Positions 217-24,265 of a stretch of DNA of 37,212 bases are shown piece after piece; position 1 is the stretch's first letter; each line of letters starts with the position of its first letter. The position numbers were made by a program, and so were the translations under genes. The notes beneath the pieces were generated by a model, which saw only the letters and a program-made list of their open reading frames with translations, had not been told where the DNA came from and did not search any database. Source of the DNA: Phoronis australis (lineage: Eukaryota > Animalia > Phoronida); the NCBI GenBank assembly GCA_002633005.1, contig NMRA01001231.1:1-37212 (forward strand). The letters run 5' to 3'.

Positions 217-2186
217 ATCAATAGCCGAATGGGCAAGTCTGGCCTTCACGCTGCCAGAAGTTTTTGTCCCTTTCATCCTCGTTCAGGTAGCCTATCACAC
301 TTGAGGTACATGTATCTCTACAACATGTTGGATGTTCGGCAGTTGCTAGTAACTTATCACTTCTGATCTTGTTCAACCACTGGCCTTTGTCAAAAAATAT
401 TTTCATTCATGATCACCCAGTGTTTATTTCAGGTTACTGGAGTTCACTGCATATCATTAAAATGAACAACGCCTCAATATCTACATCAAACAAAATTCGT
501 TTTAATTCTAAGGATCTGACCCAACCCACTCTGCTCTTTACTGTGCATCGTATTGGGATGGGTGCTGGACTGGGCCCTTTCAGAACATTGAGCACTGTGT
601 GAGGTTACCAGGCAAAGCAATTTATACAAAATATTAAAAATGATTGTATATGTACATGCTATTGACGTCTTCTTGCAGTGTCGGCTGGACGCAACGACAT
701 TCCAAACGAAATTGTACTCGGGGCAGCCTTTGTTGTAACGGTGAAGGCATACACGACCTTTTGAAGACTCGACGTCATCAGGGGCAGGCAATTTTCCTTT
801 TGAACATTCCTACGCCATAACCTGCGCGACACAGAAAACGTTAAAACTGTATTATTTTTTACAATTCTCCGCCAAATGTTCCAGTTGCGTGATGACTTGA
901 TAACCTAGCATGTGTTTTTCATAAACCAGGTTTTATTTTTTACATGCCTTAAGTGTTCAATGGTTAGTTGGTTGTAGAACGTGTTAATTAATTATTAGAA
1001 TTGATTGTGTTTTGCTTGTTATTTACTTTGTCATCACAGCTCATTTATAGTCCGCAATTGTCACGAAGACAGGCAGTAGAGTACGTTTATGTTAATGCAG
1101 TAATGAAATTCTAGTGCTCAGCAAAATACCTATTGTTTTGTGAACGCAATATTTACATTTACAAAACCGTATTGTGTTTTTACAAACGTCACACATCTGT
1201 TGATATAATGTTAGTTCATTGTTTGTTTGATGAAGATGTTTATTGTTTTTTGAATTTTACTCTATTTATTTTGCTTGTTATTTATTTACACATTCCATTT
1301 GATTTACTCTTTTACAGTAGCACAACAATGAAGTTCTCCTTTGTTAAAACCGTATCGTTTTCTTGTGTTGAGAAAAATACGTAGTGTTTTGAGAAAACAA
1401 TATTTGTTTTTCGTGAAAGGGATTTGTTTTACATGCGTGTCATCTTTTGTTGGTATGATGTTCAAATGTTACTTGTTTGATGAACATGTTACTTGTTGTT
1501 AGAATTTACTTTTTGCTTGTTGTTCCTGTAGTTTTATGCTAATTTTTGTTTTTTATGTTGGCTTCGCTTAATTTCTTGATAGTTTTAACTTTAAAAGGTT
1601 TTTGCTAAATGGTTATTTGTAATTTGCTGTTTATAATGATATTCCTTCAACAGTTGCATCCACTGTTCCGTTAAATGTTGAAATAAAACTTTATGGAAAC
1701 ACCATTTTAGAGTGATTTTGCGAAGCTCTAGATTTCCTTAAGATATTCCGTATGACAGACACAGACAACACGTTGTACATGTAATGGAGGTGCCACCACT
1801 GAGCTATAACTATTGACGCTCATGGATATACGAAGCTTTATTCAGGGTGTGCTCAATTTCAGTCGATGTAAACAGTCGCATATAACGGCATCACAACTTT
1901 CCAAAAACGAACTGGAGATTGTCCGTTTTTCAAAAACAACCCACTTTTTTGCTTCTTCGATGACGGTTTTGCTTTTTAAGGTAACGGGTACCGCTAATTG
2001 ACAAAAATGATTTGTTTAAAGAAACTCGCTGTGTATGGAGCAAAATATATGAGGTTTGAGTTTCCGTTTTCGAAAGTGGGTCTGTTGAAAAGGCTGTCAC
2101 CACCGCGCACGGTCTGTTTACATGCAACGCTCGATTCTGCGAACTGCAACAAGCTTCAGATGTCAGCTCATCTCATTGATGAATTA
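217..2186 (+). repeat. Outer inverted-repeat arm A (~2 kb), homologous to 10356-12340 in opposite orientation
   Basis: Colinear reverse-complement matches throughout, e.g. ggcctttgtcaaaaaatattttcattcatgatcacc vs 12169-12204, and tgtcagctcatctcattgat vs 10363-10382. Diverged, with indels (roughly 75-85% identity by eye). Confidence 0.92.
830..2033. mobile_element. Possible non-autonomous EnSpm/CACTA-like element nested in arm A (counterpart 10508-11713)
   Basis: Bounded by CACAGAAAAC (830) and ...CGCTGTG (2033); internal degenerate ~230-255-bp T-rich repeats near 910, 1135 and 1390; no clean TSD. Confidence 0.35.
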
Positions 2187-7593: not shown

Positions 7594-8201
7594 AAGGGTG
7601 ATCAGTATCTCTCCCACGACTTTGAAAATGAGATTCTTGATTTGATGGTGTCACTTGTTATAAGGGATTTGGAGACAGACATTGGGGATGGGTTCTTTTG
7701 CGGCGAATTTACCGACATTAGCAACAGTTTTCCATGTGCATTCATTCGGTGGACAATCAACTTGAATGTCATGAAGATTTTGTAAGGTTTTTTTTACCTA
7801 CCAGATATTGCTGCTGGAACAATATCGCATGCGTTTTAAATGTAGATTGCTAGTACTTAAACTATCACTGACCAAATGCCAAGGACAGACGTGTCGCGAA
7901 GACTATACAACAAGAACGGCCGAAAGCATTCCCTACTCATAATCATAGCCACTCGCTCATTTTAGGCGTTAAAAACGTATCCAAAAAATGTTGTCTAACA
8001 CAAAAATCAGAGGGAATAATTAAAGAAATCCTGACTTCAGTCAAGTGTTCTGCGAAATGTGAACAACTATTTGGGGAAATTAAAGACAACGTCGAGGATG
8101 ACGAGGACAATCTCTCACCCACCGGACTCTTGAAACTCTGTCCAGCGAGATGGACAATTAAAGCCTTATGCTACAAGCGCGTGTTGGAAAATTATCCGGC
8201 C
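7594..8201 (+). pseudogene. Decayed hAT-superfamily transposase fragment (ZMYM1/ZNF862-like type)
   Basis: Stitching frames gives KGDQYLSHDFENEILDLM...FTDISN / FSMCIHSVDNQLECHEDFV / LKLSLTKCQGQ / VAKTIQQERPKAFPTHNHSHSLILGVK...EQLFGEIKDN...LLKLCPARWTIKALCYKRVLENY. These are recognisable hAT motifs (IQNE-like, CxGQxYD-like, HCxxHxLxL-like, TRW-like) with several frameshifts and stops. Confidence 0.78.
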
Positions 8202-8366
8202 TCTTACTATGTAACCACCTGCTACAATTAATGTCGATGGAGTGTTTCTTGGTGTCTTTGCATCTCGTGGTTCTACAGACTACTGAAGTGGAAAAACTTA
8301 ATCACCACTTTGTCACATGTTACACCTGATGATAAAGGCCGGTACCGTGGGCGCTACCAGCGGCAA

Positions 8367-8450: not shown

Positions 8451-8709
8451 ATATATATGTGTGTATATTGACATATATATATATATATTCACCTGTATAT
8501 ATATGTGTGTGTATATTGATATATATATATATGTATGTATATACATATACAGGTGTATACTAAGTTGCAGAAAATCATTTATGGTTTGAAATATTCGTTG
8601 AAACATGTGCAGCGGTTCATTCGATTTCAATGAGTTTCGTACTCAATGAATCAAACAGTAAAAACATTACAGTCCACAACAAGCTGGCTATCGGAAGACT
8701 TACTTAATT
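8367..8709. repeat. 45-bp inverted repeat pair enclosing a (TA)n/(TATG)n microsatellite (MITE-like)
   Basis: 8367-8411 aattaagtaagtcttcagatagccagcttgttgtggactgtaatg vs the reverse complement at 8665-8709 (44/45); microsatellite ~8414-8550. Confidence 0.8.
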
Positions 8710-10355
8710 GTGTCAGGTTCTTTTGGGGACGCTATAAACAAAGCAATTGACTAAGCCCGATTTCCTACATGTTGATTAAAAGTAGCATGGCATAAAAATA
8801 GTCGTCCTACCACCGTGCGTCGGAATTTTCATCAACTGAATGTTTTTAATTTTTAGACCAGTAAAACTGCTTTTTCACAAGTGACACCTTCAATCATTGT
8901 TTTAGGTAACCCGAATGATGAGCTTAAGGCAAAATTCGGATGCCGTAGATGCGAAATTCGAATTTACTCCATCACGAAAACGTATAGGCACAAACGTCTA
9001 CATTCCCGCATTATGCGGCATTAAATGCCTGTATTTACACAACTATACCGAATATATATGTACATGTATGTTTGTATCTATATATAGATTGCGTGTGAGT
9101 ATGTGTATGAGTGTACTATGTTTGACTCCCAGGTATAATGCTTCCTATGGCTTTTTGGGCTTAATTCTTAGTATTTACATAGTAGCACAACATCTGATAT
9201 TTCTTGACGTCATTGAAGTGCTTAAAGTCTAGAATTGTATCAAATTACCAAAACAATCCGCATCAGCAGTCCAATTTTATCACCTGCAAAAACTATCCCT
9301 GTTTTGTTTATTTCAACCAATTTTCGTTCTATCACCTGCGAATGTATCCTTGGCGTCCCACATGAGTAGTAAGAGCATTATACTCCCCGTTTCCTAGATG
9401 AAATATTACGGATCCTATGAATGTTTTTCTCATAAGTACATGTAAGTCGTCTAAAACGTCAGTCAAGCTTGCCGAAGTTGTCATTACTGAGTTCTCAAAT
9501 TTATTTCTAAACTGTTGAGGGTTGCCGATAACTACAGAGAATTATTTTGTTTCTGAATCAGGGATTGGAAAGTCATTTTAATACCTGTTATGCCAAAATC
9601 AAGTTTAGTTTTCTTTTCAACTCTCAGATCTCTAAGAATTAGGATTTTTTGGTCGATACATATCACGCAGAATAGACACAGCCAATTACATCATTATTCA
9701 TCATGCACTGTCTTTAGCAAGATAAGTCGTGCGATACTGCTGCTCGTTTTCAATTGTATTATGGCTAGCATGTGTTAAACAATGGCACTGCGTGTGTGGT
9801 GGTTGTGACAACTCAGTAACTGATCAAGCTTAGGCTCTATTCACTTTCAGGACACGGGAGAAGCGCATACATGGTACGGCATTAAAAAAAGCTCGCTTTT
9901 TGGTGGACATGTCACAAACGTGCTGGATACGTTCTTTCGTCACATCCAAGTCCGTGGAGGTCAGACACTTTCAATTGAAGCAAATTCCTTCTATTATTTC
10001 GTTTTTGCGATATTGAATTCAGGGTAGTGGTATGCAATGATATAAAAGAAGGTTCGATGTTGCTCACAATGTAGTCACTCGACAGAACACACTATAATTA
10101 AAATGGTGACCTCTTGAAATAACTAACCAGGTAGCGATTGTCAACTCAAGGACTTAAATAGTTTCAGAATCTAGTCGAATCAAATGTGCTCATGTCATTC
10201 ATAATACTTTGACATTGTCATGTTCAAGTTAGGCAAAATGTCCGGTCTGAAATGTACATGTACATTGCCAGGAAAAATCCCTTTGAAACGATTCCATGGA
10301 TAGCTGATCCATTCGGCAGAGTAGATTTGCATTATGTAAACACTTACGGGACATT

Positions 10356-12340
10356 TAATTCGATCAATGAGACGAGCTGACAGCTGCAGCTTGTTGCAGC
10401 TCGCTGCATCGAGGATTGTACGTAAACAGACCGTTCGTGTTGGTGACAGCCTTTCTAACAGAGGCTTCCCAAAAAGGAAACTCAAACCTCATAGATTTTG
10501 CTACAAACACAGCGAAAATTTTTAAACAAAGCATTTTTGTTAACTAGCGATACCCCCAATATTAAGCAGGAAAATCATCAGCTAACACCTTTAAAATCCT
10601 GCGAGGAAGTCAAAAAGTGGCCGATTTCGGAAAGTTATGGTGCCGTCATGCGACTGTATATATTGACTGAAATTGAGCACAGTTTTAATAAAGTTTCATT
10701 GTATCCATGAGCTTCAACAGTTATACAGATCAGTGTTCGTACCTCAGTTAAATATTCAACGTATTGTCTGGGTGTGTTATACGCAATATCTCTATGAAAT
10801 CTAAAGCTTCGCAAAACCACTTTAAAATGGTGTTTCCATATACTTTTATTACAACACATTAACATAACAGTGGGTGCAACACTTGAAGGAATATCAGCAT
10901 AAACAGCAAATTACAAGAAACAATCCAGTAAAAGTTCTAACAATAGAATTTCAAGCCAAGCCAACTTAATGAAAAAAACAAGAATTACCCGAAAAACTAG
11001 AAGAACAACAAGCAAAACACTTAGAGTAAATTGTAATAACAATTAAACATGTTCATCAAACAAGCAACATTTGAACATCATACTAACAAAATACAACACG
11101 AATGTGTAAATCAAAACCCGTTCACGAAAAACAAATGTTAGGTTCTCAAAACACTATATATTTTTCTTAACACCAGAAAACGATGCGGTTTTATTAAAGG
11201 AGTATTTCATTGTTGTGTTACTGTAATACTGTAAATCAAATTGAATGTGTAAATGAATAACAAACGAAATAAACAGAGTAAGTCTCGAAATCAAAAACAT
11301 CTTCATCAAACAAACAATAAACGAACATTATATCAACAAAAAAACACGTTGTATGTAAAACCACAATACGGTTCACTAAAAGTAAATATTAGTTCACAAA
11401 ACAGTAGGTATTTTGCTGAGCACTAGAATATAATACTGCCTTAACATAAACGTACTTTACTGTCTGTCTTCGTGACAGTTGCAGACTATAAATGAGTTGT
11501 AATGACCAAATAAATAACAAGCAAAACACAATCAATTTTAATAATTAACACGTTTACCAATGAAGTACCAATTGAACATCAGGCACCTAATAAATAAAGC
11601 CTGGTTCATAAAAAACACATGCTAAGTTATCAATTGATCACGCAACTGGAACATTTAGCGGACAATTGTAAAAAATAATACCGTTTTAACTTTGGGGTAC
11701 ATTGTTTTCTGTCTTCACAATGGTAATGGCGTAGGAAATCAGCAGGAATGTTCAAAATAAAAAATGGCGCAGAACCTGCCTCTGATGACGTCAAACCTTT
11801 AAAAGGTCGTGTAGGTCTTCGCCATCACGACAAAGGCTGCCCCGAGTACAATTTTGTTTGGAATGTCATGGCGTCCAGCCGACACTGCAAGAAAACGTTA
11901 ATGGCGTGTTTATGTACAATTATTAAGATTTTGACTAAATTACCTGGAACCAGGACAACGTTAGAAAAACTTTGCCAGGTAAACCTCACACTGTGCTCAA
12001 TATTCTGAAAGGGCCTCAGTCCTGCCAACATCTTAATACGATGCACATTAAAGAGCAGGGTGGGTTGGGTCAGCACCTTAAAAAAACGAATTCTGTTTGA
12101 TGTAGATATTGGGGCGTTGTTCATTTTAATGACATGCAGTGGACTCCAGTAAACTGAAATTAACACAGGGTGATCATGAATGAAAATATTTTTGACAAAG
12201 GCCAGTAGTTGAGTGATAAGGGACTGGAAACTGTCCAACTTTCAACATATTGTGGAGACACCTCATGTTTGATATGGGACCTGAACAAGGATGAAAGGAC
12301 GAAAGGTTTTGGAAGCGTGTAGGCACATTTAGCTATCGAT
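10356..12340 (-). repeat. Outer inverted-repeat arm A' (inverted copy of 217-2186)
   Basis: See arm A. Confidence 0.92.
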
Positions 12341-14001
12341 GAGGAATAATCTATAAGGATAGAGTGTGTTGTCAGGGCCAATGTGAGGTAGTTGACAACA
12401 TTCATGGTTTACCACAATGTCCTGCTTACCTTGAGCTAAGGTCAGATATGATCAATACATTGAATATAGGATAGGAGAATATAGGGCACTGCCAAGTGGG
12501 AAGTGCTTCGCTAAATCTGCCTATACGATATCAACGATGTCAACAATGTTCCAATGTTAGTGATGAAGAAGCCGAAACGTGATAGACTCGCTGATTATTG
12601 CCAAGACCTGCTTATAAGAAGTTATACCGTTTGGTACACATCATTTTTGTTGTTCTCAGTTGCAAGGTTTCTAATACGTCCAGAAAGACACTGGCATTGT
12701 AATGTAATTCTGAAAATGTTTGAAAAGAATAAAACTAAAACTTATCTACCTATCTGTCTTCTTTTGTCCTCCATAAATGAGAAAGTCATACAAAAAAGAT
12801 TGAAGGGGAAATAAGCTTTTAGTAGATCGTATTTGATGGAACTATTCTGATATCTGTCATAACATAGTTTAGACACATCAGATATTCAAGTTATTTTAAT
12901 GTAATTAGGGAGGCATCAGAGTAATGTATTCTATAGCCAAGTTAATTTACGACGTTCCTGAAAATTAATTTTTGCACAATAAACCTGGCCAAAAATACCC
13001 TTCCATTCGTCACATCTGTGTGAAGCTTCATTTCTGCAACACCAATTACATGGCAAACTGTTCTGAGTTAGTTATCATCTTTTACGTCACCAATAATGTC
13101 AATAACCTATTACGGTAATCAAGGCTGATATGCAGATTGGTCAAGCAAACCAAGACTTACGTGTAGGCATATCTAAACATTCTCTTATTTTCATGGCATG
13201 CATTTGATGCTGGCCAAACGTCCAACCCGACAAAAGTACACAGGGTACTGTTGATCGAGGCATACTGCCCTTGTGAAGCACTTTTCAACAAGAATACAAT
13301 TTCATAGGAACGTTACTATAATTCTATGTCAAGTTAAGCTAAGTCTTCTTATTTCTTAGCATACATGAGGGGCCTGACAATATAATTAAAGCTGGTAAAA
13401 CAGCAAACTTACAAAACGATTAGTCAACTAGACATTTAGATGCTGAAGTTACCTTTAGAAGCAAACAATACATCAAACCACGCAAAACTTTAACCGACCA
13501 TTGTTTGTGGTGTGGGAACAGTTGCTAAGGCCATCATTCCGAATTAAAGATGATTATAAAATTTCAAGTAGCCCTGTTTCTGCGTGGAGAGAATGTACTA
13601 TGTAACCCAGTGTAACTTAATTCATACAGATTATATTGTCATCATATCCATCAGTGCAGCAGTTTAAGATAAAACTTTTGGACTGAATGCATCAGAGTAA
13701 AAACGAATGGATACAAATCCACTTAATGTCAATGGACCTTCAGAGGAAATGCTGTGAAGCATTAGAGCATGATACATTTCCGATTTCACAATTCCTTAAA
13801 CCATATTCGCAACATTTGGAAGAATATATTACAAAATGTTATCCACAGAAGTGACCACAGGACAATTGATCAAGAAACATTGAGTTCGCAAGAGAAGATT
13901 TGCAGTTTGAACAAATCAAATAAGTTGATTAATGGTTCTTGTGAAAGTGGTATACCGGTGAACACAGTTAATTTCTGAACTAGAGAAAAATATAGGCATA
14001 C

Positions 14002-14037
14002 CTCCACCTTCTCCACTTCCAGTTGGTTTAACGGTAT
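14002..14037 (-). CDS. 36-nt stalk micro-exon copy E: (D)TVKPTGSGEGG
   Basis: ctaaattatgatttacag|ATACCGTTAAACCAACTGGAAGTGGAGAAGGTGGAG|gtatgc. Confidence 0.68.
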
Positions 14038-14546
14038 CTGTAAATCATAATTTAGCTTTACATTAAATATTCCTGTAATAGTGTGGTCTCCACGCAAGTG
14101 ACGAAAAGTCACTGTGGGCCAATGAAACACGAAAACTTAATCTAGAGTGCTGAGTGTTGGTAGAATGGGTAGGGTACAGTTGACATCTATCTTGTGTTCA
14201 GAACGTCTATGCCACAAAAGGTGAGTTGCCAAGTTCAAACTCATGCCAGTCGTAATAGTTCACCTTCCAACAGCAAAGGGTTTTCTAGGGTTAAGGTTCT
14301 CGATCATACTGTAATAATCACTTTGCCAAACTTAAGTGAGACTATTGACATACAGACCCTGAATGCTGCGATATCACTCGGTATGAAAGTCTGAATATAC
14401 AGGTAGCTTTCTTTGCTTTCCCAGTATTTCTTACTTCTCACTTGGTCAAACACTCTTTTGAGAGTGGCATGTGGTTTGCCTACTTAATATATGATCTGTC
14501 TTCAGAGATTAAAGTTAATTTTGAGTTAGAGAAAAATATTTCATAC

Positions 14547-14582
14547 CTCCACCTTTTCCATTTTCTGTTGGCTTAACGGTAT
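14547..14582 (-). CDS. 36-nt stalk micro-exon copy D: (D)TVKPTENGKGG
   Basis: ctaaattatgatttacag|ATACCGTTAAGCCAACAGAAAATGGAAAAGGTGGAG|gtatga. Confidence 0.62.
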
Positions 14583-14988
14583 CTGTAAATCATAATTTAG
14601 TTGCACCATGAATATAATTATACAATGTACGTATCTATACTTCAAAGTCACTGCTCAAAAGAAACGAAAACGCAAGAGACAAAAGTTTATAGTGTGTGTA
14701 CAGGTATGTCTGCTTTTTCTTATACTAAATTGAAGAAATGAAACTAAACTTTAGCACCAAAGATGTTCACAAATTTCTATGTCTTAGTACCAAAAAACTT
14801 GTTGATCTGTTGTTAGAGGAGCCAGGATTGGGAATCCTGACATGTTTGACATAGTCATAGCGCCACCATGTGGATTAGCTTCTAAAAGGACCCATTGCAA
14901 CAAATTCCCTGGTGGAGCAGGAGTACTTTCCAACAAATGATGACCTAACAAAACTTGCGAAACATGTTCACAAAGAAGTCAGCCCCGA

Positions 14989-15158
14989 TGAGAGAAAGTT
15001 GGATAAACTCATAAGAAAAGTGGAATGTAGCCTTTTAGTAATGTGACTAAGAAAATTATTCAAATTAAAAAAACAGCTCGATAAGAGAAAGTTGGATAAA
15101 CTCATAAGAAAAGTGGACTGTAGCCGTGTGACTACGAAAATTCAACTTAAAAAACAGC
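14989..15158. repeat. Two-copy ~90-bp tandem duplication
   Basis: agagaaagttggataaactcataagaaaagtgga...gtgacta..aaaatt..caa.ttaaaaaa.cagc occurs twice. Confidence 0.85.
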
Positions 15159-15617
15159 CAAATAGGAAAATGAACATGCTTTTACAAGTTCCAAATAAAA
15201 GTCACCAAACTACCATTATGTAATTGAAATACCTTATAAATGCATTAGCGTAAAAGCAATAAAAAGACAGTTCTGATACTTGGGAAGGTAACAGCATTTC
15301 CCTGAGAGGTCCCTTCAACAGACTCTATTCGGTTTACTTCATTTCTTGCGCCATTTCCGCAACATTTGGAAAATTATACGTTTTCAACAATGTCATGGTA
15401 GTTTGGACATCGGGGCTTATAGCAATACCAACTAATGCCCGATGTAATCAATAGAAGAGATCATACTAACAATGTTCATCAGGAGAAACAAGGGGATTTG
15501 CAGTTTGGAAGAACAACTCCAATTGCATTGATAAGAAACAGGTGCTGTTGATGCTTGAAAGTGGGGTATTGTCTGCCTAATGTTAAGTTTATAAATTTGG
15601 GAGAAATATTGACATAC

Positions 15618-15653
15618 CTCCACCTTCTCCAATTCCAGTTGGCTTAATAGTGT
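15618..15653 (-). CDS. 36-nt stalk micro-exon copy C: (D)TIKPTGIGEGG
   Basis: ttgcag|ACACTATTAAGCCAACTGGAATTGGAGAAGGTGGAG|gtatgt. Confidence 0.65.
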
Positions 15654-15724
15654 CTGCAAATTACAATTAAGTTTTATATTAAGTATTCATATCTTTAAAA
15701 AGCAAAATTTGGTGCACAACAAAT

Positions 15725-15742
15725 GCGCCACTAGATGGCGCG
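15725..15742 (+). promoter_or_regulatory. CTCF-like motif GCGCCACTAGATGGCGCG in the micro-exon repeat unit (second copy 15958-15975)
   Basis: Matches the CTCF core consensus CCASYAGRKGGCRS; a GC island within an AT-rich intron. Motif match only. Confidence 0.4.
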
Positions 15743-15850
15743 AAATAAGCAGAATTTATGTAAAAATAGCAACATGTCATTGTTTCTTTAATGGAAAGCT
15801 ATTGCCTGCCTAATATTAAGTTTCTAAATTGGAGAAAAATATTGACATAC

Positions 15851-15886
15851 CTCTACCTTCTCCACTTCCAGTTGGCTTAATAGTGT
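15851..15886 (-). CDS. 36-nt stalk micro-exon copy B: (D)TIKPTGSGEGR
   Basis: Identical to copy A; cttaattgtaatttgcag| acceptor and |gtatgt donor. Confidence 0.65.
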
Positions 15887-16083
15887 CTGCAAATTACAAT
15901 TAAGTTTTACATTAAGTATTCATATCTTTAAAAAGCAAAATTTGGTGCACAACAAATGCGCCACTAGATGGCGCGAAATAAGCAGAATTTATGTAAAAAT
16001 AGCAACATGTCATTGTTTCTTTAATGGAAAGCTATTGCCTGCCTAATATTAAGTTTCTAAATTGGAGAAAAATATTGACATAC

Positions 16084-16119
16084 CTCTACCTTCTCCACTT
16101 CCAGTTGGCTTAATAGTGT
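16084..16119 (-). CDS. 36-nt stalk micro-exon copy A: (x)TIKPTGSGEGR
   Basis: ttgcag|ACACTATTAAGCCAACTGGAAGTGGAGAAGGTAGAG|gtatgt; phase 1-1, compatible with the C2 exon. The upstream intron runs into the N gap. Confidence 0.65.
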
Positions 16120-16129
16120 CTGCAAATTA

Positions 16130-16694
16130 NNNNNNNNNNNNNNNNNNNNNNNNNNNNNNNNNNNNNNNNNNNNNNNNNNNNNNNNNNNNNNNNNNNNNNN
16201 NNNNNNNNNNNNNNNNNNNNNNNNNNNNNNNNNNNNNNNNNNNNNNNNNNNNNNNNNNNNNNNNNNNNNNNNNNNNNNNNNNNNNNNNNNNNNNNNNNNN
16301 NNNNNNNNNNNNNNNNNNNNNNNNNNNNNNNNNNNNNNNNNNNNNNNNNNNNNNNNNNNNNNNNNNNNNNNNNNNNNNNNNNNNNNNNNNNNNNNNNNNN
16401 NNNNNNNNNNNNNNNNNNNNNNNNNNNNNNNNNNNNNNNNNNNNNNNNNNNNNNNNNNNNNNNNNNNNNNNNNNNNNNNNNNNNNNNNNNNNNNNNNNNN
16501 NNNNNNNNNNNNNNNNNNNNNNNNNNNNNNNNNNNNNNNNNNNNNNNNNNNNNNNNNNNNNNNNNNNNNNNNNNNNNNNNNNNNNNNNNNNNNNNNNNNN
16601 NNNNNNNNNNNNNNNNNNNNNNNNNNNNNNNNNNNNNNNNNNNNNNNNNNNNNNNNNNNNNNNNNNNNNNNNNNNNNNNNNNNNNNNNNNNNNN
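16130..16694. other. Assembly gap (565 N)
   Basis: Run of N. Confidence 1.
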
Positions 16695-17899
16695 AGTCAG
16701 ATTCCCAGCGGTTATAAAAGACCCGATGTCCCGAGACCGATATAATCCAGAACTGACGTTTTCCTGTTCCGATGTTTCCCGAGGTCGATGTTCTGTAAAC
16801 CCTGTATTCTATACCCGTAGCCAGCTGTTGCACCTAAACTGGCACTAGATGCGAAACTGTGGTTCAAGTTAGCGAACTTTTCATTCTTCTCTTTATACAC
16901 CCCCCTCCCCGGCAACTTTTCGCTCCCCGAACCACCGTCACCGTAAAATGTTCAGACTCCTATAGAAACAACCTTGTTCCGGCTGAAGCGGGCAGTTAAA
17001 AACAAAATCATTCCGGATGGGTAAAAAGGGTACAATGTAGGTGGTAACGATATCCAGAAAGTCACCCCTATACTAGATGGAGTTTGCCTCGCAAAATTGT
17101 ATTATTATAACCTTTCTTACCATTGCAGCGGTTTAATACCTTATTACCGCAAACACTGAGGTTAACGACTATGCTCACGCACGAACCTACTCCCTACCTT
17201 TAAAGTGTTTCATAATAAACGCTCCCTGATCTATTAAAAGTCTCCCCTTAAATTTTGAGAATTTCCAATTAAGCACCCACAGTTCAAGCTAGCGCCGATC
17301 GTAGCGCACTACAAACGACCGCGTGTGGTTTACAATTGACACGCAGCTTACAGTTTGTATATTGTGTGTCACTTTCATTTTACACAATTTCATTTTTCAA
17401 AAACGTCTTTTCACATTATTTAAAAATCAAATCCCGGCTTTGTTTTATACCTCGGAAAGAAAGTTAACACTAGTGATATGCGTGTCGTTTTGTGACTGAC
17501 CTATTTTTCCCGTACCCGGAAGGTATTGAGGAGCAAACTCGCCATTACCCGAGTTAGTTTGAATCGTTAACGACTTTGATGACAGCCAGTAGCAGGCCAG
17601 ATATAACAAAATCCCGGATACTTTTTCAACAGGCATTTTCTCCCTTTTCACATCGCAAATTTAGCTACTCGAATGCACAAGTCAGTTAGAGGGCAATGAT
17701 TCAACTTTCACGTCGGCAACTTGCCTTGCGCTCTAGAGTCTTTCAATGGCGGTCGTGAAGAACAGTAAGGCCGTACCTGCATGAATGAAGTCAATTTTGA
17801 GATCCGAAATTTGTGAGTATTTAACGCTGCAGGTAAGAGCATGATTTAAACATTTCCTCGATGATCTAAAGAAATCTGTTTTGGCGCGTAAAAATGGCG

Positions 17900-18013
17900 G
17901 GAAAATTTTGCGACCTGGCATTTACGAATGCGAGCTGGATTTTGAACATGCGACCTGGGATTTTGGCTAGGTCGCAAAATGCGACCTGGCGATTTTAATA
18001 GCGTCGAGCCCTG
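17900..18013. mobile_element. hAT-like element terminus (reverse complement CAGGGCTCGACGCTA) with TGCGACCTG subterminal repeats
   Basis: ...gcgtcgagccctg at 18001-18013 and four tgcgacctgg-like motifs; the other end is not seen. Confidence 0.5.
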
Positions 18014-19255
18014 TAATAGATGCCTAACTGCCAAATCTCATGAAAATCCATTGACGACCCTCTCGGATTCAGAGGTTCAAGGGGGCACACCTGTAGCATG
18101 ATCTGCCCCAAAGTCGTCATCCTCTGTTTTCAACTCTATAAAAATACATCAGAAAAATTCAATAAAGATCCTGCAGAGCATGTAAAAGATACAGCCATGG
18201 GCGAAAAAACAAACAAAACTGCCACTAGGAGAAGCCATAGTATTCCAAGCCATCGGAAAATCATCTTCAGCTGCCTTCTTCACAATAAGAATATATATGC
18301 CAATTTTCAAAATCATCCCTAAAGCGGTTTGGTTGAGAGAAAGGTGGATGCCAAAACACAGACTCAAAAAACAGTAAAAATGGCCACTAGGTGGTGCAAA
18401 GCACAACTGAATCCGTCCCGAAATGTGAGAATGGCATCATCTCACTAATAGATGTCTAACTACTAAATTTTATGAAAATCCATTGAGGACCTTCAAATCT
18501 ACAGAGGTAACCATAAAATATTAAAATTGCCAATAGGGGGCATACCAGTAGTCGGAGAGGTCCGAAATTCATCATCCGTTGTCACCTTCATCAGAACACA
18601 TCCTTCCAAATCTAATCAAGATCCTGTGAGGAGTTTAGAAGATACAGCCATGGGCGAAAAAGCAAACAAAGTATTCCAAGTCATCGGAAAATCATCGACA
18701 GCTCCGCTGAACACAGTAAGAACATAAGTCAATTTTCAAAATCATCCCTAGAGCGGTTTGATTGAGAGAACGGCAGACGCCAAAATAGAGACTAGAAAAC
18801 AGTAAAAAAATGGCCACTAGGTGGCGCAAATTACCTCAAATCCCTTTGAAAATGGGAGGATGGCATCATCTTACTAATAGATGCCTAACTCATAAATTTT
18901 ATGAAAATCTGTTGAGGGCAATCGAATATACAGAGATTAGCGTAAAAAACTAAAAGTGCCACTATGGGGCACACCGGTAGTCAGAGGTCCGAAATTCGTC
19001 ATCGCGTGTCGTCAGCTTCATAGAAACACATCTGCTAAATCTCATCAATATCCTGTGAGGGGTTTAGGAGATACAGCTGCGGAAGCCGGACGACAGACGC
19101 CGAATGCCCAGACAGAGATGACGGCAATATGCCACCACATATAAATTTATTTATTTACTTATTATTTATTATTGTGATATTTAAAATGAGGGTGGCCTCT
19201 TCAGTGATGGCTCTGCTTTCCAAGAGGACCCTCAAAATACGTGGGCGCACAAAAA
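18014..19255 (+). mobile_element. DINE-1/HINE (Helentron-associated)-like element, 5'-truncated, with ~430-bp internal tandem repeats
   Basis: Repeat units start near 18015, 18447 and 18876. The 3' end has a GACA-rich tract, a tgccaccacat...gtgggcgca hairpin and an A-run. Confidence 0.5.
19146..19233 (-). mobile_element. 3' tail fragment of an L2/Crack-like LINE (or derived SINE) inserted in the HINE hairpin loop
   Basis: Minus strand gagggtcctcttggaaagcag...ctgaagaggccaccctc stem followed by a (TAAA)n-like tail. Confidence 0.45.
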
Positions 19256-19488
19256 TGCTTTCACAATTTGAAAATAAAAATTAATCTTCAACCATATTAT
19301 TATAATGTAAACGAAATGTTGACTTCGTTTCAATAGCCATAGACACATCTATAAAAGGCATTAGAGTTAAAAAAAACACACACAGAAACACAACGTCCTT
19401 TCGAGTTAAGGACCCTCCTGTACGATAGATGTCAATGCACAGTCTATTCTGTTTTCCGCATTCGTAGCACCATATCCTCAAGATTTGG

Positions 19489-20903
19489 AACAAGAGCAAC
19501 GAGGAGCGTTGAAATGCGCCCATGAATGCACAGAAAACGGTTTTTCTCTAGGGTTGTTTATATGAAACACAAAAATAGTCATTAGATGCCAAAAATATGT
19601 CGAATCCACTCAAAAACCATCAAAGCTATCCAAATTTCATGAAATCCGCCAAGAAACTTCTGAGAAACCGAGAAAAACGAGAAAGGAACCTGTCACTAAA
19701 GAGGATATAGGTGCAAAAAACATAACTGTCATCAAGAGGCACCACAGTAAATAAAGTCGTCAGAAAATTGGACGACATCGTCACCTCACTAATATTCACT
19801 GTAGGCCTATGTGTCAAATTTTATGAAAATCCATTGACGAACTTTGAAGGTAAGCAGAAAAAAATAAAATTGCCACTAAGGGGCACACCAAAGTCAGAGA
19901 GGTCCGAAATTCGTCGTCATAGAAACGCATCTGCTAAATCTCATCAAGATAATGTGAGGGTTTAGGAGATGTCGCCATGAGAGCAAAAACAAATAAAGCT
20001 GCCACCAGGAGGGGCCACAGTACTCGAAGTTGTCGGAAAATTATTGTCAGATGCATTTGTAAAAACACATATGTCAATTTTCAAAATCATCACTGGAGCG
20101 GTTTGGTTGATAGAAGAGCAGACGCCAAAAACAGACTAGAAAACATTAAAATCGGCCACAGGGTGGCGCAAAGTACCTAAAATCTCTCCGAAAATGGACA
20201 GATGTCATCATCATCTTACAAATAGATTCAAATCAAATGTAAGGCAAATCCTTTGAGGACCTCCGAAAATACAGACTTTTCTGAGGTAAGTGTAAAAAAC
20301 TAGAGTTTCCGAAAATCGTCGTCGTCTTTCGCCATCTTCAAAGAAACACATCTGCTGAATCTAATCAAGATCCTCTGATTAGGAGATGCACTCATGGGCG
20401 CAAAAAACAACAGGTGCCACATTAGTCAAAGTCGTCGGAAAATCATCCTCAGCTGCCTTCTTCACTGTAAAAACATATACCCCCGTACGTCAGTTTTCAA
20501 AATCATCCCTAGAGCAGTTTGGTTGAAAGAAGCGCGGATGCCAAAATAGACTCAAAAACACTAAAAATTGCCACTAGGTGCCGCAAAAATACCTCAAATC
20601 TGTCCCAGAACAGACTGATGGCATCATCTCATTAATCCATTACGTAACTGCCAAATTTCACGAAAATCCGTTGAGGACCTCAGAAGATAAGGAAGTAAGT
20701 GTAAAGATTTAAATTTGCCACTAGGGGGCACACCGATAGCGGGAGAGATCCGAAATTTGTCGTCTGTTGTCAGCTTTATAGGAATACATCTGCCAAATTT
20801 TTATCACGATCCTGTGAGGATTTAGGAGATACAGCTGCAGACGCCGGACAACCAGACAGAGAAGACGGCAAATGCGAACACATGTAATGTGGGCGCATAA
20901 AAA
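19489..20903 (+). mobile_element. Second DINE-1/HINE-like element, with ~415-bp internal tandem repeats
   Basis: 5' aacaagagc...aaatgcgccca; units near 19808, 20221 and 20634 homologous to the first copy; 3' gacagagaagacggcaaatgcg...atgtgggcgcataaaaa|tttt. Confidence 0.55.
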
Positions 20904-21109
20904 TTTTTCAAATTGTCAAAATAGTTGGAACAGTCTTAAAGCAATGCTGTTCAACTGATGCCTGGTGTTTTCAATAGAAGTGATCACAAGACAGTACCGG
21001 TTCATCAGAGATTTTTCAAAACTGTCGTATCTTACTGATAAGTTCAAGACGTTAGTGTTCGAATTTTAGAACTGTAGGTGAAGGCACTTTTCGCATGTAC
21101 GTACGGTAA

Positions 21110-21195
21110 TCATGGACTGGGCGCTTATTTTAGCAAAGATTGCAAACGCTTGGGGTTGGTTACAGGGGCATGGGCGCTTATTACACCAAATACGG
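21110..21195. mobile_element. Terminal fragment of a TA-flanked CCGTA-type (Tc1/mariner-pogo-like) element
   Basis: gggcgcttatt repeats ending ...ccaaatacgg|TA. Confidence 0.45.
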
Positions 21196-23118
21196 TAAAA
21201 CAAAATGTTAATTTAATGAACTTATTTTTTGTTGGTACCTTGTGTTTCTAAAAAATGCTTAGCCTTCGGTAAAATGATGCAAAAATATCCATACAAAAAG
21301 TTCCTAAGGTAATCTAGAGCATAATAACAAGACCTAAAGGAAGTCATGTCAAGTTGCTTTTGCGTTGGAATCAACGTGTTATTTCTGCTCTGACCTGCCA
21401 GGCTGTGTTTGGTGTTGAAAAAGCTGATAGTAGGCATTTTTAAACGTTAGGAACCTGCCGCCTACTTTACCGAGCACTTTTTCACATCCTCACTGTAGTA
21501 GTCACTCGTTTTGTGTTTTTCAGTGCATTGAGTCATTGGGTGGCTTGTATGAAGTGATTTCATAGCAATCATTGTCTCATCTTTCATATTTTTGTTCCCC
21601 AGGACCTTTTTAAGATTGGGCTTTTCTTTTTCTGCTGAGCCTCGAGGAAAGTAAACCGGCGTTTAGAAAGGATAGAGGAAACTGTTGGAGACATTGGGAA
21701 GAACAGAGGGATGCAACTGGAAGAAGAATAAATACATGTATCTGATGGAATATTCTCTGAAACTCAAAAATGCCACTGTGGATCAAAAAATTCATAAATG
21801 TACCTGCGGGTACTGTGATAACACATCACCATTATTACGTATTTACGTGGGCATGGGTCAGAAACATCAACAACATGGCCCAGAAAATACGTTTGTACAA
21901 GCTGAGGGTGAGCTCTAATTTAAAAAAATGATTGAAATGCATTCTCATTACAGTGATGATTGGTAATGCTTTAAACTTTATTTCACATTTGATATTTTGA
22001 CAGCCACATTTGCTTATTTAAGTTTTGAGTTAGTATTCTATTTAACACATAACAACCATTTTACCATTTTCCTGATAACTAACAGCTGTCAAATACAAAA
22101 TGATTATCACTTTCATTCCCATCTATATTGCTTACCTTCTAATGGAAGTGAAGATTTTGGGGGTTGTTTCATAATCTTTAATCAAGTGTATTGGAAAGTT
22201 AAAATCCTAGAGTATATTCGTAGCATAGGCCCACCTGTGATGATTCCGTGCAAATAGTCAGTAAGTACATTTTAATTACATTGAATTAGTAGCAAAGACC
22301 AATATACATGTAGCTTAAATACTGCAAATGTATGAATTATTCTGAATTGATATCTTAGTAACAACAAAAAATTTATTACTAGAAATTCAGAGTGTACATT
22401 CGTCATTAACTCCATCATTAACTCAACTTAAACATGCATCAAGCTGCCTCACAAAAAATTCTTAGAAAATATCCTCAAAAAATTATTTTGTTGTACTTTG
22501 CAAACATTCCACTGAGTCATTATGTAAAACAAAAAATGTAACTTGATGCCACTCACAGAAAATCAACGTCAACAATTAAAAAAAATTCCAATTCTCTTCG
22601 CTTGTCTGTCACACATAAGGCAATTTTCTCAGTCAGACCAAACGTTAGGGTAAAATCTGATCCTATGAAAGCTATCAATGACTGTACACCTATCAATTGA
22701 TATAATAGTTATTTTCCTAACATGAATGTCCCCAGATGGAATTGCCGTAAGCCATTTTAGTCATACTGTTATTAGAATTTTACCAATAGTAATTTTTATT
22801 ATGATGACAGGAAAATGCCATGTTGTCTTATTACTTTTGCATTGTATTGTATATTCTGGTCAGTTGTTCACTAGACTATATGGAGTAAGCTGTAATCTGG
22901 CGTTCGAAACGTGGATTATTTGGGACATTCAGATGACCTATTTTCTACGCCATGTGACTCAATCATGCCGTCAATCAGATCCAACACTACGCTTTACCTT
23001 AACAAACAGAAATAAGGCTCTTCTGTGTATCTATTTGTTATACGATAGTAATTTCATAAACATGGTCGGTGGACATTCACGCAGAAGGCCATTACCGCCA
23101 GAAGTCCAGAAGCAAATT

Positions 23119-23166
23119 CAGCAACACACAGCAACACACAGCAACACACAGCAACACACAGCAACA
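23119..23166. repeat. (CAGCAACACA)n 10-bp tandem repeat, ~4.7 copies
   Basis: Seen directly. Confidence 0.95.
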
Positions 23167-23740
23167 AATGAATTAAAAAAACCCAGCCAGATGTTTAAGT
23201 TTGGTCGACACAATGGCAATGTGGTCAAAGTCTGTAAAGAACTTAGCCTTGAACATAACAGAAATTAATTTACAAACAAATTATCTTCAATTTCTTTGAT
23301 ATTGATAGAAACAAGCAAATACAACCACAATTGCAAACAGGAACCGAACACATAATTGCACAGAGCTCATAGCGACGAGTCTAGGGATCATTTTTTCCAC
23401 CTGCAATTCCTGGTTTTGAGGTAGGAAATTTTGGAAGTTGAAATTGTTAACTCTGGCATTTTCTAGCAGTCAATTGGTTAAAGTTGTGGTGAAACGTAGA
23501 GAGAATGCTATTGTAACAAATGTGAAGATACTAGTTCCCCAAGACTGCAAATATACAACATATGAAATAAAGGTCATGAAGGAAACGTAAAACTATGCAT
23601 TGCCAACGGGGATTAAAAAGCAGCCCTATGTTTCTTGGAGGTTGCAATAGAATCGTGGCTCAGTACAACAACTTCCTAAGTAATGCAAATTGTTGCCTAC
23701 AGCAGGAATAAGTACCATGACAGTTAAAATAACAACTTAC

Positions 23741-24064
23741 TGGTCCCCTTAACAGCCTCAGTTTCAGCGTACAGAGTAGCCTGCCTGTTTGACACTTGAC
23801 ATCGGAACTGTACACCATCATCAGCTGTATCTAAGTTGACCCTGAGTGTGCTGTTGCCGTTAGTGGTTCCATCATTGTTGTTGGCGGTAGTCATCTTAAC
23901 ATTCTCCGTTATATTTTTGTATGCACCGCTACCAATCCGACGTGACCACACCATAGATGCCTGTGGTTTGCCCAAGTTAGCTGTACATATGAGGACAGCT
24001 GGTCCTGTTGCACCAAGATCAGACTGCGTCGGGGCTCCAGATATAGATGGTTTGCTCGGTAGGA
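23741..24064 (-). CDS. Exon encoding a C2-type (CD80/nephrin-like C2-set_2) Ig domain
   Basis: Acceptor ttcttatttccccag| at 24065, donor |gtaagt at 23740; 324 nt, open, phase 1-1. Translation (V)LPSKPSISGAPTQSDLGATGPAVLICTANLGKPQASMVWSR...NSTLRVNLDTADDGVQFRCQVSN...EAVKGT shows the C..W..C pattern, G-K-P motif and N-glycosylation sequons. Confidence 0.92.
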
Positions 24065-24265
24065 CTGGGGAAATAAGAACAAAATAAGCATTACAGCACC
24101 AATTTACCTATCTAGCTACAATTGATCGCCCAAGTTATCTAATTAAAACACTTTGACATTTGAATGACGTTTTGGCATGCATTGGCCCCTTAATTCGGTA
24201 TGATGATAAAATGTCACCAGACTTCTACATGGCCTCTTTTAACATTGTTAGTAATAGCCGAGATT

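Follow-up and report, generated by a model that had tools for sequence, protein, structure and literature searches.

In SmPoMuc, the multigene family of polymorphic mucins of Schistosoma mansoni, a micro-exon of 27 nt is repeated head to tail together with its flanking introns, the number of repeats varies between genes and between individuals, the array breaks genome assemblies and the repeats are predicted to be O-glycosylated; these repeats are ~1 kb in length, reach up to ~20 per gene and lie near the N-terminus, and the sections of that account drawn on here describe no Ig domain or GPI signal (PMC2576457). Small optional exons also alter the glycosylated extracellular length, as here, of CD46 (the STP exons, of which STP-B encodes 15 residues; PMC2118878), of CD45 (exons 4-6, where CTCF promotes the inclusion of exon 5; PMC3902899) and of CD44 (the variable exons; PMC12563948). 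The chicken BG genes form an immunoglobulin (Ig) superfamily multigene family with copy-number variation and tiny repeated exons of 21 nt, as here, but there one V domain and a transmembrane segment precede the array, which encodes a coiled coil in the cytoplasm (PMC4046983), whereas the array described here is extracellular and Gly/Pro/Thr-rich. Short frame-neutral exons are shared with the Schistosoma MEG genes, where they make up most of a secreted protein (PMC10526429), and tandemly duplicated exons in an Ig gene are shared with Dscam, where they are mutually exclusive (PMC1397879) and not joined in series as here. In prawn lectins, repeats of 30 and 33 bp vary within one exon (PMC7536079).

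Here we describe an array of 36-nt micro-exons in a gene of the phoronid Phoronis australis, found in a stretch of 37,212 nucleotides (contig NMRA01001231.1, assembly GCA_002633005.1), which we refer to as the window. The array works like a SmPoMuc-type cassette placed where CD46 has its stalk exons, without belonging to either family; the layout of Ig, Ig, linker and predicted GPI signal argues against membership of SmPoMuc. Compared with SmPoMuc, the cassettes here are 233 bp long, with older ones beside them, and form a membrane-proximal linker behind two Ig domains. CD46, CD45 and CD44 are each encoded by a single transmembrane gene that has a fixed number of exons and is proven to be alternatively spliced, whereas the exons here are near-identical, still duplicating and part of a multi-copy GPI-type family, the chains of units being unphased to gene copy. 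In CD2/CD48 and CEACAM-type proteins an N-terminal V-like domain without the usual disulfide is followed by a C2 domain, and some members are GPI-anchored; the likeness is in layout only, the best solved-structure match to our C2 domain being CD276 (E 2e-7) and the V domain having none below E 0.06. In a literature search that covered mostly open-access articles, partly and without their supplements, we found no account of an Ig protein of GPI type whose extracellular part contains a duplicating array of micro-exons.

Micro-exons and their cassettes

A scan of both strands (up to 14 mismatches) detected exactly five copies of the 36-nt unit in the window, A to E, all on the minus strand (Table 1), and a profile search of the window recovered the same five with E-values of 4e-18 to 5e-23, the next best match having an E-value of at least 3.9. 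CAG on the 5' side and GTATG on the 3' side flank all five copies, and a branch-like motif lies ~18 nt upstream, CTTAAT in B and C and CTAAAT in D and E, the sequence upstream of A falling inside an assembly gap. An initial annotation, made from the sequence alone, had described five such copies with acceptor, donor and, where visible, branch-like motif, as both searches and the motifs of B-E now bear out; it had also noted that a listing of open reading frames misses these exons, and a simple ORF listing does lack them. Its further observation, that the copies are equal in length and open in the phase left by the C2 exon, agrees with the translation, in which phase 1-1 holds for the C2 exon and every copy and no stop arises where they join. 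Each micro-exon is a multiple of three in this phase, so that the reading frame is kept when one is gained, lost or skipped. As for a transposon-borne repeat, the searches covered the window, which holds only these five copies, and the copies are spliced to the exons of the gene.

Three of the copies (A, B and C) belong to a tandem cassette of 233 bp with 97% identity, and between the cassettes of A and B a single base of 233 differs. The introns downstream of C and E can still be aligned (score 127; shuffled maximum 83.5), which marks these as older relatives; the view that duplications of different ages coexist therefore stands. The assembly gap adjoins A, and its end keeps the register of the 233-bp cassette. 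Five is therefore the lowest number of copies that the array can have, and from the length of the gap, 2.4 cassettes (565/233), we infer that it likely hides about two further copies.

Table 1 Features of the window, with strand and the basis of each call.
Feature	Position	Strand	Basis or remark
Inverted paralogue of the end of the last intron, the last exon (its coding part from 679) and the 3' UTR	242-2186	+	84% identical, stop position the same
Open frame, 119 residues	7872-8231	+	
3' UTR, end approximate	11798-10680	-	Stranded depth in bins 10676-12232, near zero below; A(A/T)TAAA at 10850 and 10689
Last exon, coding part	11884-11799	-	Read joints to 11884 and translation; absent from the initial annotation
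Micro-exon E	14037-14002	-	Ser-Gly in the window; Asn-Gly in most reads
Micro-exon D	14582-14547	-	Peptide TVKPTENGKGG; without Ser
Micro-exon C	15653-15618	-	Ile in place of Ser
Micro-exon B	15886-15851	-	Sequence identical to A; Ser-Gly present
Micro-exon A	16119-16084	-	Peptide TIKPTGSGEGR; Ser-Gly present
Assembly gap, 565 N	16130-16694	.	Adjoins A, ends in register with the 233-bp cassette
C2-type Ig exon	24064-23741	-	324 nt, phase 1-1
V-like Ig exon	35309-34944	-	366 nt, phase 1-1, predicted from sequence
Candidate first coding exon	36948-36882	-	22 residues, phase-1 GTAAGT donor, in frame with the V exon; inferred

Ig exons and predicted GPI signal

The C2 exon is, by its sequence, an immunoglobulin superfamily domain, with two Cys (26 and 88), a core Trp (39), two N-glycan sequons and a Pfam C2-set_2 score of 33.1 bits against a cut-off of 21; it is expressed and spliced both to D and to the last exon. 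The V-like exon scored 20.4 bits with Pfam V-set (E 6e-4), below the cut-off of 26, its Atlas features matched V-set clusters at 0.95 (196 of 256 features in common), it contains no Cys and no Trp, and a single-sequence structure model reached a pLDDT of 41.5, too low for a fold search. The candidate first exon, a possible signal peptide, is weakly hydrophobic (best 11-mer 1.2). In translation, the candidate first exon, the V-like exon and the C2 exon run on into the five copies with no stop between them. RNA reads were mapped over 8600-24150 and the V-like and candidate first exons lie beyond this region, so both are predictions from the DNA.

The last exon encodes 27 full codons and then a stop, with small residues, a short polar spacer and a hydrophobic tail (best 11-mer 2.78, best 19-mer 1.03) that contains a Lys in the window. 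Judged by inspection and hydropathy, this matches the GPI signal layout described in PMC9203819, and with a hydrophobic tail followed directly by a stop the product is predicted to be GPI-anchored, without a cytoplasmic domain; the Lys in the tail and the weakly hydrophobic candidate signal peptide count against this. Of the IgSF receptor proposed in the initial annotation, the Ig domain is upheld by the C2 exon, which scores above the cut-off, but a signalling receptor by itself is unlikely, given the predicted GPI-type signal at its end. For the transcripts seen, in which the stop falls at codon 28 of the last exon, we rejected a transmembrane receptor that has a cytoplasmic tail.

An inverted paralogue of the last exon lies tail to tail with the gene's own, its frame and stop position retained, and its upstream exons would fall before the start of the window. 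Two further 3' ends were recovered from the loose ends of reads, one from 326 and 274 reads (X1 and X2, see below) and one from 66 reads (X1); hand translation places a stop at codon 28 in both, their tails are at least as hydrophobic, and the coding length of the last exon is thus equal in the window gene, the paralogue and the two read-derived ends. Among the 25 best-ranked read variants in the 3' UTR, mostly sites where nearly all reads differ from the window, 17 match the inverted paralogue; these sites would, if anything, favour changes private to the assembled copy over a simple origin of the reads from the paralogue.

Splicing of the micro-exons in RNA

RNA evidence came from three raw-read runs (X1-X3, under the same species label, ~18-19% of each sampled) and a contig set (X4), all mapped on 8600-24150, with X1 and X2 mapped again on 11770-16129 at lower stringency; the X4 contigs leave the micro-exons uncovered. 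Single sites in A, C and E were covered by 193-544 reads in X1 and 147-507 in X2, against mean depths of 2.5 and 2.2 in 23 intron bins, and the orientation of read mates was nearly all one way, which fits RNA from the minus strand.

Reads join the micro-exons to each other and to both neighbouring exons. With both orientations summed, D was joined to E in 180 (X1), 181 (X2) and 1 (X3) reads, so copies are joined together and the mutual exclusion typical of Dscam does not apply. C was joined to D in 65, 49 and 2 reads and A or B, which the reads cannot tell apart, to D in 64, 55 and 1. Junction reads from the C2 exon, ending at 23741, into one of the copies had been expected in the initial annotation, and are present for D (57, 60 and 0 reads); a joint of C2 to A was not among the best 15 of 204 joints or, in the second list, the best 15 of 30. 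The last exon was entered at 11884 from E in 121-132 (X1), 126-134 (X2) and 2 (X3) reads, and directly from C2, with zero units, in 64-112 (X1), 37-84 (X2) and 2 (X3) reads, zero-unit transcripts making up roughly one fifth to one third of those that reach the last exon. Splicing thus uses the predicted sites and places the micro-exons in series between the C2 exon and the last exon; transcripts carry zero to several units, and more than one copy is used, several being spliced within one transcript.

In run X3, depth was 43 in the C2 bin, ~0.4-1.3 in the micro-exon bins and 3.9 in the last-exon bin, compared with 240, 17-27 and 81 in X1; X3 appears to express mainly other family members, so that use of the family differs between samples.

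Reads from other alleles and paralogues

The haplotype assembled in the window is nearly absent from the reads. At position 11868, ~99% of reads differ from the window (540 of 544 in X1, 456 of 463 in X2), its own letter being kept in 4 of 544 and 7 of 463. In E, 464 of 544 (X1) and 431 of 507 (X2) reads, ~85%, have Asn in place of the window's Ser; in C, 202 of 227 and 138 of 158 reads have Ser where the window has Ile; and in A, Gly stands for Arg in 181 of 193 and 134 of 147, the window's letter at 16087 occurring in 12 of 193 and 13 of 147. Reads translated by hand contained 36-nt units that are absent from the window, of a TIKTTESRDGG type (three nucleotide variants in X2) and a TSKPTKSGDGG type, and the consensus of 87 and 62 reads, at an agreement of 0.70 and 0.68, suggests a 30-nt unit without Ser-Gly; every unit seen in reads has an open frame and is a multiple of three. 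Joints that are impossible in the order of the window were also found in X1 and X2, E to D in 32 and 27 reads, E to E in 43 and 44, and C to C in 92 and 46, and X1 holds three different 3' ends of the last exon, all stopping at codon 28.

The ends of C2 bound for the last exon and those bound for D differ in consensus at one site, as expected if they originate from different gene copies, although the former consensus, at an agreement of 0.90-0.93 (against 1.0), may include the C2 type that goes to D. A few intronic reads equal the 233-bp cassette with one difference, which means that this locus has a transcribed allele or very close paralogue. At least three gene types are represented in the reads, which stem from other alleles and paralogues, and the gene belongs to a multi-copy family. 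As these types are unphased, the variety of junctions can be attributed to differing arrays, to skipping, or to both.

Where reads continue from an E-like exon into the intron, at 14000, donor position +2 is C in 6 of 8 and 13 of 16 cases, suggesting that one gene copy has a GC donor, which is weaker. In 68, 35 and 5 reads, a related C2 exon is preceded at 24051 by 25 letters matching 8671-8695, an arm of a 54-nt inverted repeat; this joint may reflect either capture of an exon end or exonisation of the repeat arm.

Constraint on the unit and its glycan sites

Nine of the 36 columns vary among the five copies, four synonymously and five non-synonymously, and the synonymous excess gives p=0.18 (4 of 9, against 9 synonymous sites of 35). 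Comparison of B with C shows two changes in the 36 exon bases, each of which alters the residue, but only one in 50 bases upstream. Exon mismatches were fewer than flank mismatches in all five older pairs, which are non-independent, with Fisher p-values of 0.057-0.47. The initial annotation had seen synonymous changes without indels, and constraint behind them: the four synonymous changes are real, but five others change a residue, and the lack of indels is true of the window only, the reads suggesting a 30-nt unit in other gene copies. Its contrast between exons and indel-ridden flanks is confirmed in that splice sites and frame are kept in all five copies whilst the flanks take indels; the case for constraint is weakened by the p-values above. 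Selection on the peptide of the unit shows no significant sign, and a function of its length is thus only hypothetical.

Copies A, B and E of the window have Ser-Gly, in a region without structure, as do most reads on A and C, where the commonest unit reads Gly-Ser-Gly-Glu; the pair is absent from D, from the Ser-Arg units and from the 30-nt unit, and Ser is lost in the window's C. Around the Ser lie Glu at +2, Asp at +5 and Lys at -4, and the net charge of a unit is 0 to -1. Thr beside Pro makes ordinary O-glycans at least as likely as glycosaminoglycan. The xylosyltransferase sequon is given as Ser-Gly in unstructured regions (PMC10570366), GSG was ranked first among attachment contexts in a study whose mapped human sites have acidic residues mostly N-terminal of the Ser (PMC10424144), and a preprint finds an acidic cluster to be required in one protein (PMC13405426), each as far as the portions of these sources used here extend. 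The earlier proposal that Ser-Gly units tune the number of glycosaminoglycan sites loses ground to the replacement of Ser by Asn in ~85% of E reads and to the several units without Ser-Gly. Ser-Gly units of some copies may carry a putative glycosaminoglycan, which we rate as possible and rather doubtful.

Relatives and neighbouring elements

Word-index protein searches returned no relative among 217 candidates for C2 and 291 for V against longer proteins, nor among 2 for C2 against proteins of similar length. A full HMMER search gave 163 matches at E ≤0.001, none of them at 1e-30, all pointing to distant Ig proteins; the closest relative shares 54% identity over 69 residues of an 80-residue fragment, 2 of 10 matches looked up are Lingula kinases, and the motif of the unit was present in none of the 152 matched proteins examined. 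For C2, the highest-ranking Atlas cluster points towards molluscs, though with two records only. One relative of 302 residues (P0076) has an apparent signal, a V and a C2 domain, a short Ser/Thr linker and a hydrophobic end, without the repeated unit, and the alignment of its V domain with that of the window is not significant. A pattern scan of metagenomes yielded 58 loci; all 60 matches diverge after the pattern (10-20 mismatches in 23 bases), none matches the window by blastn, and they were dismissed as chance.

Four perfect matches to what we take to be the CTCF-type consensus lie in the window, at 15728-15741 and 15961-15974 (+) and also at 18814-18827 and 20718-20731, against none in 100 shuffles. 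One falls in the intron of each 233-bp cassette (15728, 15961) and two in an unrelated 429-bp repeat, so these matches may be repeat debris. A degenerate array of ~430-bp repeats occupies 17900-20900, in the intron between C2 and the micro-exons, and draws many divergent RNA reads from copies elsewhere. The open frame on the plus strand at 7872-8231 resembles what is presumably a fragment of a hAT-type transposase.

How linker length varies

On balance we favour a linker built in 12-residue steps between the C2 Ig domain and the predicted GPI signal, in a multi-copy family, with its length differing likely mainly through the arrays of different alleles and paralogues. The cassette of exon and flanking intron would duplicate head to tail, probably by unequal crossing-over, and the phase 1-1 exons, being frame-neutral, keep the reading frame through gains, losses and skips. 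The Thr/Pro/Gly-rich linker would then be a flexible, probably O-glycosylated spacer that sets the reach of the Ig pair from the membrane, and copy-number differences between gene copies would be the main source of its length variation. Variation in exon copy number had been raised in the initial annotation and is implied by the units and junctions absent from the window. Skipping within a gene probably also contributes somewhat, at about an even chance. It is unlikely, in our judgement, that one gene skips its micro-exons combinatorially and so tunes both height and glycosaminoglycan-site number. Reads lead into D-like exons from C2 (57 and 60 reads) or from A/B/C-like units (151 and 122 summed), into E-like exons from D (180 and 181) or from A/C-like units (84 and 44), and into the last exon from C2, E or another unit, all of which such skipping would produce, and CD46 does use stalk-exon skipping (PMC2118878). 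However, with the window haplotype nearly absent and at least three gene types in the reads, copy number can explain these junctions without skipping, and the gene types suffice for those observed. The glycosaminoglycan part of the proposal draws on the commonest unit in reads on A and C, Gly-Ser-Gly-Glu, GSG being the top attachment context, but the acidic residues of human sites lie mostly N-terminal (PMC10424144), whereas the units have a net charge of 0 to -1 and a Lys four residues before the Ser; in addition, 85% of E reads have Asn for Ser, and D, the Ser-Arg units and the 30-nt unit are without Ser-Gly.

The same copy-number arrays could expand neutrally, with any number of units tolerated and the cassette duplicating and drifting without a tuned function of length, which we also regard as improbable. 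In its favour, 5 of 9 variable exon sites change a residue and the synonymous excess is at p=0.18, B and C differ more in the exon (2 of 36) than upstream (1 of 50), and roughly a fifth to a third of transcripts do with zero units; on the other side, splice sites and frame are kept in all five copies whilst the flanks hold indels, the units in reads are all open and triplet, and exon mismatches are lower than flank mismatches in five older pairs, none significantly. The frequent out-of-order joints (E to E, E to D and C to C) would also arise from back-splicing or trans-splicing of the window's own exons, and for SmPoMuc, whose transcripts can contain up to 100 repeats when the genes have ~20, trans-splicing has been put forward (PMC2576457), but this reading is very improbable here, since extra gene copies explain both the read units missing from the window and the placing by the aligner of near-identical units on the closest copy. 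Equally speculative as combinatorial skipping is the fullest version, an invertebrate, GPI-anchored Ig recognition family in which reach and glycan load would be varied in 10- and 12-residue steps simultaneously by cassette birth and death between alleles and paralogues and by tissue-specific skipping within a gene, with Ser-Gly and non-Ser-Gly modules interchangeable and a CTCF-type site in the youngest cassette.

The locus represents a micro-exon cassette, verified by RNA and caught in the act of expanding, that encodes the extracellular linker of a protein of the Ig family. Should selection act on length and glycan units, the family would offer a natural 12-residue series for testing linker length in adhesion or recognition across the gap between cells; if length is not selected, it would be a clear example of frame-neutral exons letting a linker drift.
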